Shown here one piece after another: positions 55,499 to 60,539 of a stretch of 64,000 nucleotides of DNA. Position 1 is the stretch's first letter. Each line of letters begins with the position of its first letter. The notes below the pieces were generated by a model. The model did not search any database. It was given only the letters and a program-made list of their open reading frames with translations, and was not told where the DNA came from. The stretch lies in sequence record HE978309; one strand, written 5' to 3'. Source of the stretch: Enterobacteria phage GEC-3S. The translations under genes and the position numbers were made by a program.

Positions 55499-55690
55499 TT
55501 AGATTCCGGCGATCCTGCATAGAGTTCTTGTATTAGCACCAATCAGGATCGCATTAACGACAACCATTCCCCAATCAACCCACTGATTATTATAAATGCT
55601 AAACCCGTTTGTTAGGCCAAATACAAGCATTCCGGTACACATACTCAGAGCAATAATCAACATCACGGTAAAACCAAATGCAAATTTCAT
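55499..55690 (-). CDS. small membrane protein (63 aa)
   Basis: two TM helices; SD AAAGGAAA. Confidence 0.5.
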   Translation of the reverse strand: MKFAFGFTVMLIIALSMCTGMLVFGLTNGFSIYNNQWVDWGMVVVNAILIGANTRTLCRIAGI

Positions 55691-55691
55691 A

Positions 55692-55907
55692 TTATTTTCC
55701 TTTTCTCTGTTTACGTTTATAAAAGTAATACATTACCTCATCACATCCGGTGATCCAACATGCTATGGCAGTAAACAGGTTTACAATTCCCAACACACCT
55801 ACTGACGCGGCGCTGTCAACAGACATAGGAACAGTAAAGGCCATAGCTAACATAGCAACGCCACAAATGACATTAAGCACCATTATAATAAGACCGAAGA
55901 AAACCAT
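55692..55907 (-). CDS. small membrane protein (71 aa)
   Basis: start at ATG 55907 behind SD GGAGGA. Confidence 0.45.
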   Translation of the reverse strand: MVFFGLIIMVLNVICGVAMLAMAFTVPMSVDSAASVGVLGIVNLFTAIACWITGCDEVMYYFYKRKQRKGK

Positions 55908-55909
55908 TG

Positions 55910-56089
55910 TCAATCCTCCGACACAAGAAAACCAACAATCACGCCAGTGATAAGACATGATGCGCCGCTAATCAGACAACCCGCACCAAGTGATTCCCAC
56001 CAGATCAGAGAAGCGACAATAACACAGAATCCCCATACTACCGCAATCACAACATAGGCAAGGGTCGCCCAAAACATATATTTGTTCAT
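55910..56089 (-). CDS. small membrane protein (59 aa)
   Basis: start at ATG 56089, ATGA-coupled. Confidence 0.45.
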   Translation of the reverse strand: MNKYMFWATLAYVVIAVVWGFCVIVASLIWWESLGAGCLISGASCLITGVIVGFLVSED

Positions 56090-56274
56090 AATAAATCCCA
56101 TTCACCAAACAAATAAGAAAAAAGCCATATCAACAGAAACGAGGCAATTGATCCGGCAAGCAAAATGATATTAGAGAATCCGCCGTCTATCCAGGCGACA
56201 AAACAGAATACGCCAGTATAGAAGCATAAACCCATTACAAAGCATACTATAAGCAACCATAGACAAAACTCCAT
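56086..56274 (-). CDS. small membrane protein (62 aa)
   Basis: ATG with SD GGAGGG. Confidence 0.5.
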   Translation of the reverse strand: MEFCLWLLIVCFVMGLCFYTGVFCFVAWIDGGFSNIILLAGSIASFLLIWLFSYLFGEWDLL

Positions 56275-56335
56275 AGAAAGCCCTCCATCGAGATAAATTA
56301 GTACGGGTAGGGGACTGCACTACCCGCTTTGTTAA

Positions 56336-56494
56336 TCAACGCAGAGCTTCTTCTAGCGCGATCCCAAACCATCCACAAACAACGCCCATACAGACAGCTA
56401 CAAGAAGATTCATTCTCTCTTTAGGGATCATTGCAATCATAACAACAACCATACAGAAAGCCATTACCATTGATGTTAACATTTGTTCAACCAT
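56336..56494 (-). CDS. small membrane protein (52 aa)
   Basis: hand-read MVEQMLTSMVMAFCMVVVMIAMIP...; SD AAGGTG; not in track. Confidence 0.4.
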   Translation of the reverse strand: MVEQMLTSMVMAFCMVVVMIAMIPKERMNLLVAVCMGVVCGWFGIALEEALR

Positions 56495-56496
56495 TA

Positions 56497-56829
56497 TCAC
56501 ACCTTTAAAGTCATAGACGCATAAACATTAATGCCAGGCCAGTTAGGATCGCAATTATACTCAACATCCCACAAATAAAGCGGTTTAGATGTATCAGCCA
56601 AGTTTTTAAAATCTTCTACCCACATTTCAAGGCTATATGATGGATAAACTAGGCTATCATATCCGCCGTAACGTTGGCCTACTGGTCGGTCAGTAAAAAC
56701 TACCTCAAGATCCGGTAATTCTTTTTCAAGGATAACCGCCAGCGCATAAATCAGACGGTCTTCCTTGTTACGCTGCCGAAGGACCGTTGTCAGTTGGTTT
56801 TTCTGGTTCACTAGCAAGCACCTCCACAT
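56497..56829 (-). CDS. hypothetical protein (110 aa; possible frameshifted continuation of upstream ORF)
   Basis: no SD at its ATG; overlaps upstream ORF by about 62 nt in the +1 frame. Confidence 0.35.
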   Translation of the reverse strand: MWRCLLVNQKNQLTTVLRQRNKEDRLIYALAVILEKELPDLEVVFTDRPVGQRYGGYDSLVYPSYSLEMWVEDFKNLADTSKPLYLWDVEYNCDPNWPGINVYASMTLKV

Positions 56830-57088
56830 TTTCACAGAATGAAATTTTCACAGACACAATTTTACCATAAGTGAAGAATGAATATACATTATCGAGATAT
56901 TCAACGTCACCTACAATCACATCAAACTGCGGATCAGCCACTGCCGCAACATATTCTACCAGTTCATCAAGAGAATGCAACTTAATTTCATCAATTCGGC
57001 TGTATTTGGTTGCATCTTTGATTTTAAAACCACGTTCTTTCAGCTTATCAATTAGAATTTCACGCGGAGTTTCAAACAGTTTGCTCAT
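56768..57088 (-). CDS. hypothetical protein (106 aa)
   Basis: ATG with SD GTGAGGATTATATT. Confidence 0.45.
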   Translation of the reverse strand: MSKLFETPREILIDKLKERGFKIKDATKYSRIDEIKLHSLDELVEYVAAVADPQFDVIVGDVEYLDNVYSFFTYGKIVSVKISFCENVEVLASEPEKPTDNGPSAA

Positions 57089-57109
57089 AATATAATCCTC
57101 ACATTAAAT

Positions 57110-57307
57110 CTAAAATTTGTTAACGACGAATTGCATAATTAGACTAATCACAAACATTGCAAACCAAGTATAAATGCAACAGATAAAAGCTACATACAAT
57201 TCAATCTGGTCAGAGAATACACCGGGTAAAAGCATTAGCAAAATAAAAACAGTAAAGACGCTAGCGATACCCGCAACAAAACCAATATCATTTTTACTAA
57301 TCGTCAT
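57110..57307 (-). CDS. small membrane protein (65 aa)
   Basis: ATG 57307, ATGA-coupled. Confidence 0.45.
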   Translation of the reverse strand: MTISKNDIGFVAGIASVFTVFILLMLLPGVFSDQIELYVAFICCIYTWFAMFVISLIMQFVVNKF

Positions 57308-59089: not shown

Positions 59090-59107
59090 GCCACTCCGAA
59101 GAGTGGC
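59090..59107 (-). terminator. intrinsic terminator with UUCG tetraloop
   Basis: GCCACUC-UUCG-GAGUGGC + UUUUUUAUU on minus strand. Confidence 0.65.
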
Positions 59108-59245
59108 TTATAGGGAAGGTAGCGAATCTTCCTTGTCTCCAACCTGCTAGCGGCCTAGCAAGTGAATGCTTTAGCGTACCGGATCGCCCACATACGCTGT
59201 AATAAATGCGGCTAGGTGACGTCCAAATCATTCTAACCGCGCTGT
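59108..59245 (-). ncRNA. candidate small non-coding RNA (about 135 nt) from late-type promoter to intrinsic terminator
   Basis: TATAAATA at 59250-59257 then hairpin-rich sequence ending in the terminator; the only ORF here runs through promoter and terminator. Confidence 0.35.
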
Positions 59246-59249
59246 CTTT

Positions 59250-59257
59250 AGTTCACT
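59250..59257 (-). promoter_or_regulatory. T4 late promoter core TATAAATA (exact consensus)
   Basis: immediately after stop of ORF 59259-59477. Confidence 0.4.
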
Positions 59258-59258
59258 A

Positions 59259-59477
59259 TTATTTATATCGCTTTCTCTCGCGACGTTTTTGATCTTCTTC
59301 CTTGATAGAGTTAAATGCATCAAAAAGACACATGACACTGATAATGAACATAACCGTATTTTCTACGATATCCCACGGCTTCGCATCAGTACAGATCCCC
59401 CAAACGGTAAGAAATGCAAATAAGGCAGAAGAGATCACAAGCATGATACTTGCTAAGATATAAAAAGTCATTTTCAT
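59259..59477 (-). CDS. small membrane protein (72 aa)
   Basis: ATGA-coupled. Confidence 0.45.
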   Translation of the reverse strand: MKMTFYILASIMLVISSALFAFLTVWGICTDAKPWDIVENTVMFIISVMCLFDAFNSIKEEDQKRRERKRYK

Positions 59478-59656
59478 GGTTTTACCTCAATTCTTCGATA
59501 TTCATCACACATCCACGCAGTAAGCAAGAATCCCAACACATAAGCAACAAAATACGTTAATGCTTCTTCTGGTTCGGTGCTATGCGCCATCATCAGACCA
59601 GCGAGAAAGGTCTTAACAATTACATTTAAAATAATTAGCCACGCAAATAATTTCAT
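59474..59656 (-). CDS. small membrane protein (60 aa)
   Basis: start at ATG 59656, ATGA-coupled. Confidence 0.45.
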   Translation of the reverse strand: MKLFAWLIILNVIVKTFLAGLMMAHSTEPEEALTYFVAYVLGFLLTAWMCDEYRRIEVKP

Positions 59657-59877
59657 CGTTTGCCCCATTTCGGACGAGTCTTTTCAAACTTATACATTAC
59701 GCAACAATCTCGAATCATCCACGTAACAAGAGCACCAGTCAACACAGACAACACACAGAAGAAGTAAAACGGTCCGGTTGCATTATCAACATGAGCAAGC
59801 CATGTAAAGAAAACACATGCAAGGAATGTAAAGAACATCATAAAACACAAGAAAGCAAAATATTTTATGCTACTCAT
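59653..59877 (-). CDS. small membrane protein (74 aa)
   Basis: start at ATG 59877, ATGA-coupled. Confidence 0.45.
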   Translation of the reverse strand: MSSIKYFAFLCFMMFFTFLACVFFTWLAHVDNATGPFYFFCVLSVLTGALVTWMIRDCCVMYKFEKTRPKWGKR

Positions 59878-59984
59878 AGCGCCACCATACAACAGATCAT
59901 AAGAAAACCCAACGCAATAAGAATTGCATCAAATTTAGTGAACTCCGGTCCACCTATCAACATCATTCGTTCCTGTTCAGTCAT
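59874..59984 (-). CDS. possible small membrane peptide (36 aa)
   Basis: hand-read; ATGA overlaps at both ends; not in track. Confidence 0.3.
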   Translation of the reverse strand: MTEQERMMLIGGPEFTKFDAILIALGFLMICCMVAL

Positions 59985-60178
59985 AGATCACAGAGCCATC
60001 TTAAAGCACCACATAAAGCGAGCAGAATACTAGGTATAAACGAGATCAAAACAAGTTGGCAAAAATCATCTAAGGTAACACCGGAATAGCTACCTACTGT
60101 AACAACACCGATCATCAGACACAGAAAGAAAACAAATGCAACCAGAAACAAAGTATTGCTAAACAGTTTAGTGATCAT
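59981..60178 (-). CDS. small membrane protein (65 aa)
   Basis: start chosen at ATG 60178 with SD GGGGTG. Confidence 0.4.
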   Translation of the reverse strand: MITKLFSNTLFLVAFVFFLCLMIGVVTVGSYSGVTLDDFCQLVLISFIPSILLALCGALRWLCDL

Positions 60179-60371
60179 TAGACACCCCACGACGATCAAT
60201 TTCAAAAACTTTTTTATCATCAACGAAGCATGTCACAACTGCCTCGTTGACTTCCGCAAATTGTTGTGTTACCCACTTAAGGTCAGAGCGAAACAATGTT
60301 CTATTAATAACAAATGCTTTACCGATCTTATCCTTACCCATAAATTTTGCTTTAACCATATCCAATTCCAT
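60168..60371 (-). CDS. dmd: Dmd-like antitoxin (inhibitor of RnlA/LsoA-type toxins)
   Basis: 67 aa; MEL..V.F.G...K...D..W.TQQFAEVN.A.V..FVDDKKV.E.D.RG pattern matches T4 Dmd as I recall it. Confidence 0.45.
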   Translation of the reverse strand: MELDMVKAKFMGKDKIGKAFVINRTLFRSDLKWVTQQFAEVNEAVVTCFVDDKKVFEIDRRGVSNDH

Positions 60372-60380
60372 ATTATCACC

Positions 60381-60539
60381 TTATTTGCTAATCGCTAAAC
60401 CCAATCCGAAGAGAGCACCCGATGCTACAGTATACCCGAAAGTTTCAAATGCAGTAAAGATATCTAAGCCACCAGCTAACAGAGTTGCAGTAAACAGAGT
60501 ACCAGCTACGAACATAAAAGTTTTACCGATAAATTTCAT
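60381..60539 (-). CDS. small membrane protein (52 aa)
   Basis: hand-read; leader GGAGAATCAAAATG; not in track. Confidence 0.4.
   Translation of the reverse strand: MKFIGKTFMFVAGTLFTATLLAGGLDIFTAFETFGYTVASGALFGLGLAISK

Follow-up and report, generated by a model that had tools for sequence, protein, structure and literature searches.

The stretch of DNA analysed here (the window), 64,000 nucleotides of Enterobacteria phage GEC-3S (record HE978309), comes from a Krischvirus, an RB49/Phi1-like, T4-type coliphage. Over some 5 kb of its minus strand (55499-60539) it carries 14 very small open reading frames (ORFs) in three clusters, here called A, B and C. On the evidence of sequence, these are genuine, separate genes under purifying selection, accessory genes of a Krischvirus hyperplastic region (HPR) that encode minimal transmembrane (TM) helical hairpins. 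A preliminary description of the window had pointed to three clusters of about 14 tiny hydrophobic genes, and all 14 ORFs were indeed found where it placed them. We suggest, tentatively, that their job is the conditional protection of the infected cell at its envelope, by superinfection exclusion, counter-defence or both, rather than the timing of lysis.

Fourteen tiny genes on one strand

More than 50 Krischvirus genomes, RB49, Phi1, JSE and ECD7 among them, match the region at 97-98.6% identity, and every gene between 54 and 62 kb lies on the minus strand. The 14 ORFs correspond to Phi1 ORF107-103 (A1-A5), ORF112-110 (B1-B3), ORF124 (C1) and ORF122-118 (C2-C6); all are annotated 'hypothetical' in Phi1, and the W115 record has 'putative membrane protein' on 11 ORFs of the stretch. 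With annotated or Shine-Dalgarno-supported starts the products are 36-74 aa long. The range given earlier, 36-88 aa, stands at its lower end; its upper end came from the longest ORF of A4, for which we adopt the 71-aa version because a strong GGAGGA site lies at that start. Counted over the full 164 kb of Phi1, credible tiny hydrophobic genes number about 17, and this 5-kb stretch accounts for 14 of them (hypergeometric P = 1.7e-11); there are essentially none in the other ORFan-rich hyperplastic regions of the phage.

That these are 14 real coding genes follows from purifying selection on every ORF together with in-frame indels. Across eight Krischvirus loci the ratio of nonsynonymous to synonymous divergence (dN/dS, omega) is 0.11-0.63 for each ORF, pooled 0.27 against 0.14 in 11 soluble neighbours. 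Compared with a metagenomic sister lineage (L021-L023), for which dS reaches about 1, it is 0.12-0.65, with frame, length and gene order kept throughout. Over both comparisons the pooled values are 0.27-0.32 for the hairpin genes and 0.13-0.14 for the neighbours, with C1 at 0.24-0.65, C2 at 0.41-0.59 and A2 at 0.37-0.63. All 14 values are clearly below 1 at dS of 0.1-1.2, and gene-wide positive selection was found for none of the genes, in the eight loci or against the sister lineage. The indels in the TM genes are all multiples of three (12 nt, in frame, in C1 of relatives; 6 nt in B2).

The products are hydrophobic, with grand average of hydropathy (GRAVY) values of 0.32-1.67, and a Kyte-Doolittle scan gives two TM helices in 12 of the 14, one in C3 and one or two in A5. 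Published TMHMM calls for the RB49 orthologues agree with these counts, two helices being called for that of A5, and TM helices are predicted there in 20 RB49 ORFs, of which 13 fall in ORF103-124 (Nolan 2006, PMC1524935, Additional file 2). The topology check thus bears out the one- and two-helix hydrophobic proteins proposed beforehand. The commonest pattern is a basic N-terminus, an acidic loop of 7-18 residues and a C-terminus that is neutral or basic; for most of the proteins it predicts an N-in/C-in orientation, with the loop in the periplasm. Tails are strongly basic in A4, C4 and C6, the loop is basic in A1, and A2 is without any basic residue. None of the 14 showed a domain outside the membrane in the sequence and topology analysis, and the AlphaFold2 (AF2) model of A4 is a plain, generic helical hairpin (mean pLDDT 73, the model's own confidence score). 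The coding strand of the genes has 38% T against 28% in the soluble neighbours, and the products are enriched in Cys (4.0% vs 1.2%) and Phe (9.7% vs 5.4%).

Read along the minus strand, on which all of the following coordinates lie, cluster C opens with C1 (ORF124, 60381-60539; 52 aa, phrog_16462), a glycine-rich protein with two weak TM helices that comes first behind a promoter of the PeSL type (a promoter with a stem-loop). Beyond dmd follow C2 (ORF122, 59981-60178; 65 aa, two TM, phrog_17225), which is fast-evolving; C3 (ORF121, 59874-59984; 36 aa, phrog_15282), with its one TM helix at the C-terminus; C4 (ORF120, 59653-59877; 74 aa, two TM, phrog_15290), with a basic C-terminal tail and the best conserved of the 14; C5 (ORF119, 59474-59656; 60 aa, two TM, phrog_15717), with an acidic loop; and C6 (ORF118, 59259-59477; 72 aa, two TM, phrog_15168), which at 67% identity keeps its Met-Lys-Met (MKM) start, its WDIVEN loop and its highly charged, basic C-terminal tail. 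Cluster B comprises B1 (ORF112, 57506-57688; 60 aa, phrog_16425), next after the soluble gene o113, B2 (ORF111, 57307-57516; 69 aa, phrog_21837) and B3 (ORF110, 57110-57307; 65 aa, phrog_15379), whose alleles are hyper-divergent; each has two TM helices. Cluster A holds A1 (ORF107, 56336-56494; 52 aa, two TM, phrog_16035), the sole member with a net positive loop, A2 (ORF106, 56086-56274; 62 aa, two TM, phrog_19354), A3 (ORF105, 55910-56089; 59 aa, two TM, phrog_16151), with a Gly/Ser-rich helix 2, A4 (ORF104, 55692-55907; 71 aa, two TM, phrog_15232), with the basic tail YKRKQRKGK, and A5 (ORF103, 55499-55690; 63 aa, one or two TM, phrog_15016), directly upstream of the endolysin gene. ATGA joints between such genes had been noted before; we count five (A2/A3, C2/C3, C3/C4, C4/C5 and C5/C6), and the other junctions are mostly overlapping or near-zero gaps (11-nt overlaps at dmd/C2 and B1/B2, a 1-nt overlap at B2/B3, gaps of 1-2 nt at o108/A1, A3/A4 and A4/A5). 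Junctions this tight fit translational coupling.

Variation among relatives

The hairpin genes diverge several-fold faster than the soluble genes beside them, between flanks that scarcely change. In the sister lineage the abutting soluble products of o125, o117, o113, o109 and o108 are 96-100% identical in amino acid sequence; identity is 67% for A1, 77% for A4, 74% for both B1 and B2, 33-69% for B3, 73-98% for C1, 96% for C4 and 67-99% for C6, and C2 stands at 72-74% there and at 69-75% over the diverged relatives. A1 at 67% sits beside o108 at 99%, and the TM genes adjacent to o109 and o108 as a group are 33-78% identical against 96-100% for o109 and o108 themselves. Pooled dS is 0.44 in the hairpin genes and 0.25 in the abutting soluble genes, and pooled dN is 0.14 and 0.033, respectively. 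Since both are raised, mosaic allele exchange and weaker constraint are indicated rather than gene-wide positive selection.

B3 exists as two allele classes with about 33% amino acid identity, both of two TM helices and equal length, between flanks that are 95-100% identical. In JSE, Makalu and SSG23 B2 is missing and B3 is the 33% identical allele (L008 5712-5906, L006 5710-5910 and L007 5708-5908; the sister-lineage locus is L021 6594-6797), and B2 is truncated in W115 and JK32. JK32 also carries a second, chimeric A2/A1 copy in cluster A, unannotated and produced by a tandem duplication of some 265 bp (L009 4687-5141). The largest change is a natural deletion of 1.7 kb with an identical junction in two metagenome-assembled Krischvirus genomes of about 165 kb (L025 and L026). 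It joins window position 57527 to 55822 through 8 bp of microhomology inside coding sequence (L025 5089-5096) and removes B2, B3, o109, o108, A1, A2 and A3; nine genes are affected wholly or in part, B1 and A4 included, and an in-frame fusion B1::A4 of 94 aa (B1 residues 1-54 and A4 residues 31-71) is left. Because such genomes exist, the deleted genes are dispensable for propagation in nature. Apart from these variants the genes are retained in every other genome sampled; Skers, considered as a natural deletion, was rejected, as all clusters are present there.

Transcription signals

Five near-consensus sigma70 promoters of the PeSL type lie on the coding strand, with -35 boxes from 61046, 60599, 59056, 58787 and 58094; all carry GGGG..CCCC-type stem-loops and a conserved leader. 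Strong terminators are predicted at 61083-61063 and 59109-59088. From these signals we infer two early operons. One would run from the promoter at 60571-60599 (minus; TTGACA-17-TAAGAT with a GGGGG..CCCCC stem-loop; RB49 Pe:60244) through C1-dmd-C2-C3-C4-C5-C6 to the intrinsic terminator at 59088-59109 (minus), which is the stem-loop of the next PeSL and coincides with a TransTerm prediction at RB49 ORF117c<--118c (PMC1524935). The other would run from the promoter at 58066-58094 (minus; TTGACA-17-CATAAT; RB49 Pe:57746) through o113-B1-B2-B3-o109-o108-A1..A5 towards the endolysin gene. After a 362-bp offset, the promoters and terminators coincide with the early predictions made for RB49 by Nolan et al. 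2006 (PMC1524935). Other PeSLs of RB49 and Phi1 are experimentally strong promoters and effective terminators, and the HPR ORFans there are nonessential and shuffled (Arbiol 2010, PMC2839356). Early transcription and translation of both units are predicted. The T4 late motif TATAAATA has a single perfect copy in the region, at 59267-59260, where it overlaps the end of C6 and the sequence downstream; judged by sequence signals only, none lies upstream of clusters A or B.

Searches for homologues

Each ORF matches, over its full length, its own small PHROG without assigned function, and no second PHROG. In Pfam scans (E<=1) no family reached threshold for any of the 14, and an Rfam scan of the region gave nothing at threshold. 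A sensitive 'distant' blastn of clusters A and B returned Krischvirus-like sequences only, and when the 14 proteins were all run by tblastn on 50,697 phage records, matches were confined to the same 57 Krischvirus records. A word search of 5.8 billion proteins with C4, A4 and B3 found only Krischvirus-like relatives, at identities of at least 74% (for C4, at least 96% throughout). Exhaustive HMMER with C6 against 1.84 billion representatives recovered C6 alone, and Foldseek of the A4 model against BFVD and the PDB gave the Phi1 orthologue as the sole significant match. By these searches the 14 families are genus-restricted ORFans, each with relatives confined to Krischvirus-like phages. The possibility that they form one expanded family was rejected, as no pair is significant, the resemblance of the A4 and C4 tails included (blastp, phmmer and shuffled Smith-Waterman; best pairs at z of about 3 over 91 comparisons).

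Genes around the clusters

One cluster had been described as lying next to the endolysin gene and another next to a Dmd-like gene; cluster A does abut the endolysin gene, and cluster C brackets the Dmd-like one. The gene dmd itself (60168-60371, minus; phrog_2102) is soluble and embedded in cluster C; its match to PDB 5HY3 (E 8e-13) identifies Dmd, an antitoxin against the RnlA and LsoA toxins. About 0.5 kb upstream of cluster C lies acb1 (61090-61554, minus), annotated gp57B and in some records 'RNA ligase', whose product matches the anti-CBASS cyclic-nucleotide phosphodiesterase Acb1 (PDB 7T26, E 1.8e-43; PF23474). Downstream of cluster A, the endolysin is an M15 enzyme of the L-Ala-D-Glu peptidase type (55081-55470, minus; phrog_465, PF13539). 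The B/A operon opens with o113 (Phi1 ORF113, 57697-58023, minus), a soluble, stand-alone 108-aa protein of LPD25, the 'Large polyvalent protein associated domain 25' (PF18840, E 3e-14), and clusters B and A are separated by two highly conserved soluble ORFans, o109 and o108 (56497-57088, minus). For o125, o109, o108 and o113 we found orphan PHROGs and no PDB relatives.

Phi1 contains rIIA/B, rI (antiholin) and rI.-1, a T4-type t holin and the spanins pseT.2/pseT.3. When T4 Imm, Sp, TifA, 61.1 and 61.2 were looked for among the 14 ORFs and across the entire genome of Phi1, Imm, Sp and TifA had no homologue and, besides Dmd, only 61.1 had a counterpart. The genes motA, asiA, imm, sp, rIII, gene 42 and the glucosyltransferase genes are unannotated in Phi1. 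The Krischvirus dmd lies near 57B, 57A and gene 1, and that of T4 between genes 41 and 61. We considered a conserved module of tiny TM genes beside dmd in other T4-like phages and rejected it: the T-even loci have tifA, sp, 61.2 and 61.1 after dmd, not tiny TM genes, so that the Krischvirus arrangement is genus-specific, though at the position of the T4 superinfection-exclusion gene sp. The remaining tiny hydrophobic ORFs of the window are isolated, on the minus strand at 11440-11598, 29491-29649 and 5022-5132 (Phi1 ORF018, ORF046 and ORF006.1); the first of these sits in the interval between genes 61 and 41, the place of dmd, tifA and sp in T4.

Two further elements were seen next to the clusters. 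The Shine-Dalgarno sequence of the endolysin gene lies within a conserved hairpin at 55474-55492 (minus; TCACTC-ACAAAGG-GGGTGA), immediately upstream of which is the one-mismatch late motif TCTAAATA. The whole element (55474-55503) is identical in the sister lineage, where the endolysin gene is only 82% identical in nucleotide sequence. It resembles the arrangement at T4 gene e, where early read-through transcripts hide the ribosome-binding site and late transcripts start inside the stem. Behind C6, the stretch 59084-59268 (minus) comprises about 175 nt after the late motif TATAAATA without a credible ORF, folds at -60 kcal/mol (z -3.0) and ends at the 59109-59088 terminator. It is 94% identical in the diverged locus L004, against 79-85% for the flanking C6, C5 and C2 DNA, shows one compensatory change from G-C to A-U and has no Rfam match; we regard it as a candidate late-expressed phage small RNA.

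Discussion

Our preferred reading of the 14 genes, held tentatively, is conditional protection of the infected cell at its envelope. Host sigma70 polymerase would transcribe both polycistronic units from the strong PeSL early promoters, and the hairpins would enter the inner membrane of the host in the first few minutes after infection. There they would act through intramembrane helix-helix contacts, on membrane components of the host or of an incoming phage, or by self-assembly. By one route superinfecting phages would be excluded, in functional replacement of Imm and Sp, which are absent from the genus; by another, membrane-acting abortive-infection effectors of the host would be neutralised, alongside the work of acb1 and dmd. 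We suggest envelope protection because the genes are predicted to be early, because Imm, Sp and TifA are missing, because acb1 and dmd are neighbours, and because the genes are hypervariable and dispensable. Of the roles proposed in the preliminary description, superinfection exclusion and membrane-targeted interference with the host or its defences are plausible and mildly favoured, because of the early timing, the lack of Imm, Sp and TifA homologues and the position between Acb1 and Dmd. A bolder form of the proposal, which we think unlikely, makes the three clusters together with acb1 and dmd a counter-defence and exclusion island, in which the clusters are a hypervariable set of intramembrane 'hairpin inhibitors'. 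Every hairpin would counter a membrane threat of its own, such as an abortive-infection TM effector or the inner-membrane entry step of a competitor; if true, this would account for the number of hairpins, for the absence of homology among them, for the swapping of alleles and for their conditional dispensability.

Several observations weigh against envelope protection. Guilt by association is weak here, since the soluble genes of the same operons are unexplained ORFans too. Omega is below 1 gene-wide, so an arms race is not demonstrated, and the faster divergence could come from the low constraint on TM helices alone. We found no evidence of superinfection exclusion by Krischviruses, and no characterised homologue of any of the 14 emerged from PHROGs, Pfam, tblastn, the 5.8-billion-protein search, HMMER or Foldseek. 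The early expression of the two units is itself a prediction.

The holin or antiholin role put forward earlier is the least supported of the three that were proposed, and we consider it very unlikely that some of the hairpins (A4, A5, C4, C6) resemble class II holins, pinholins or antiholins in function and time the access of the M15 endolysin to the wall. The notion is suggested by the place of cluster A directly upstream of the endolysin gene, by the unrelated M15 peptidase that the genus has in place of the T4 e lysozyme, and by topology: judged by the positive-inside rule, A4, C4 and C6 have the two-TM, N-in/C-in layout and highly basic C-terminal tail of class II holins, C5 has it in part, and A1, A2 and C3 do not. 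The conserved Met-Lys-Met start of C6 resembles the dual-start motif of lambda S. However, the lysis set is already complete with the T4-type t holin, the rI antiholin and the pseT.2/pseT.3 spanins, which makes a holin role for the hairpins unlikely. Holins are expressed late, and by their sequence signals the clusters are fed by sigma70-type early promoters alone, with no late motif upstream. The best holin Pfam matches (E 0.16-0.21) score 12 bits where the cut-offs are 27-28 bits, none of the ORFs matches a holin PHROG, and the natural B2-A3 deletion with its B1::A4 fusion is viable.

The hairpins could serve host takeover, inhibiting or re-tuning inner-membrane machines (transporters, respiration, division, secretion) or mildly depolarising the membrane in favour of phage metabolism, their targets being neither competitors nor defences. 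Small early phage proteins that inhibit host functions are well known, T4 55.2 reportedly acting on topoisomerase I, and such a role would suit the predicted early expression, the nearly pure intramembrane nature of the proteins, which lack any soluble domain, and the 14 unrelated families, which suggest many different targets. It is nevertheless unlikely, as conserved machines would favour conserved inhibitors and these genes are hypervariable among phages of the same host species, besides being dispensable in nature. We think it improbable that coupled genes such as C2-C6 supply the subunits of a single hetero-oligomeric complex or pore in the membrane. The four consecutive ATGA overlaps from C2 to C6 and the tight coupling of A2-A5 and B1-B3 are often seen for stoichiometric partners, and gene order and lengths are conserved across the lineages sampled; yet members are lost, truncated or swapped independently of one another (B2 absent, the 33% allele of B3, the B1::A4 fusion), neighbours diverge as unevenly as C4 at 96% and C6 at 67%, and overlapping junctions also join unrelated genes elsewhere in the genome. 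Equally doubtful is the view that T-rich DNA, which yields hydrophobic ORFs, has given rise to young, near-neutral genes that are recent and weakly selected passengers. Their restriction to the genus without detectable ancestry, the T-rich coding strand with its excess of Cys and Phe, an omega above that of the neighbours and their dispensability would all agree with this. Against it, omega lies clearly below 1 in all 14, frame, length, topology and order are kept in all Krischvirus-like lineages sampled, motifs such as those of C6 survive at 67% identity, and the other T4-type HPRs of the genome are without such ORFs.

Since GenBank already has the ORFs and a 2006 supplement lists their TM helices, the observation as such is not new; the literature library searched contained no functional discussion of them. 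The membrane-hairpin nature of the stretch goes unmentioned in PMC2839356, where 'membrane' refers only to filters, and in PMC4122927, where the word does not occur. What is new here is the extreme concentration, the hypervariability between near-identical flanks, the operon structure, the restriction to the genus and the natural deletion. Should some hairpins turn out to serve in exclusion or anti-defence, they would count as new inhibitors that act within the membrane and are without known relatives, and they would explain how infected cells are protected in a T4-type genus without Imm, Sp and TifA. Krischviruses are used in phage-therapy cocktails, for which envelope-level exclusion and modifiers of host range are of practical relevance. 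At present we regard the hairpin genes as a well-defined, cheaply testable accessory gene set rather than as a new kind of system.

Comparison with known systems

The closest parallel is with the PeSL-ORFan cassettes described in the same genomes, RB49 and Phi1, where small nonessential ORFans stand behind a promoter and stem-loop and likewise vary among close relatives by insertion, deletion and replacement (Arbiol 2010, PMC2839356; Comeau 2014, PMC4122927). The hairpin genes share the features of PeSL-associated HPR ORFans: they lie in an HPR with PeSLs at the head, are database orphans, vary and are dispensable. They differ in that the PeSLs here head multi-gene operons, whereas the cassettes have single ORFans, and the B1::A4 deletion arose through 8-bp microhomology within coding sequence, unlike the PeSL recombination of the known cassettes.

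Holins offer a second comparison. Class II holins and pinholins (phage 21 S68, lambda-type dual-start holins) are also small two-TM proteins of N-in/C-in orientation with charged C-termini, encoded beside the endolysin. The Krischvirus genes depart from them in their early signals, in the presence of a separate t holin, in belonging to no holin family and in being 14 unrelated genes instead of one or two.

T4 Imm is an early protein of 83 aa with two TM helices that blocks the DNA entry of superinfecting T-even phages. The hairpins share its size, its two-TM architecture, its accessory status and, by prediction, its early expression; their architecture and early promoters would make them small two-TM inner-membrane proteins of the Imm type, and in a genus without an imm homologue an analogous function would be needed. 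The inter-helix loop of Imm is basic (RGSK), whereas most hairpins here have an acidic one, and blastp and tblastn with Imm on the 14 ORFs and on all of the Phi1 genome gave a best E of 2.5; no superinfection-immunity Pfam family was listed for any ORF (scans E<=1). Sp (Spackle, gp61.3), like Imm, is an early superinfection-exclusion protein of T4; it acts in the periplasm as an inhibitor of the gp5 tail lysozyme (PMC7677548). The T4 sp gene lies two genes downstream of dmd, the position of C2-C6 here, and Spackle too is early, envelope-directed and accessory. Its signal peptide is cleavable and its periplasmic domain folded, in contrast to the 14 hairpin proteins with no extramembrane domain, and we found no similarity to Sp (best tblastn E 0.05, inside gene 41). 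Belonging to no known family, the hairpins fit the class of PeSL-associated HPR ORFans and resemble small early membrane proteins of the Imm type.

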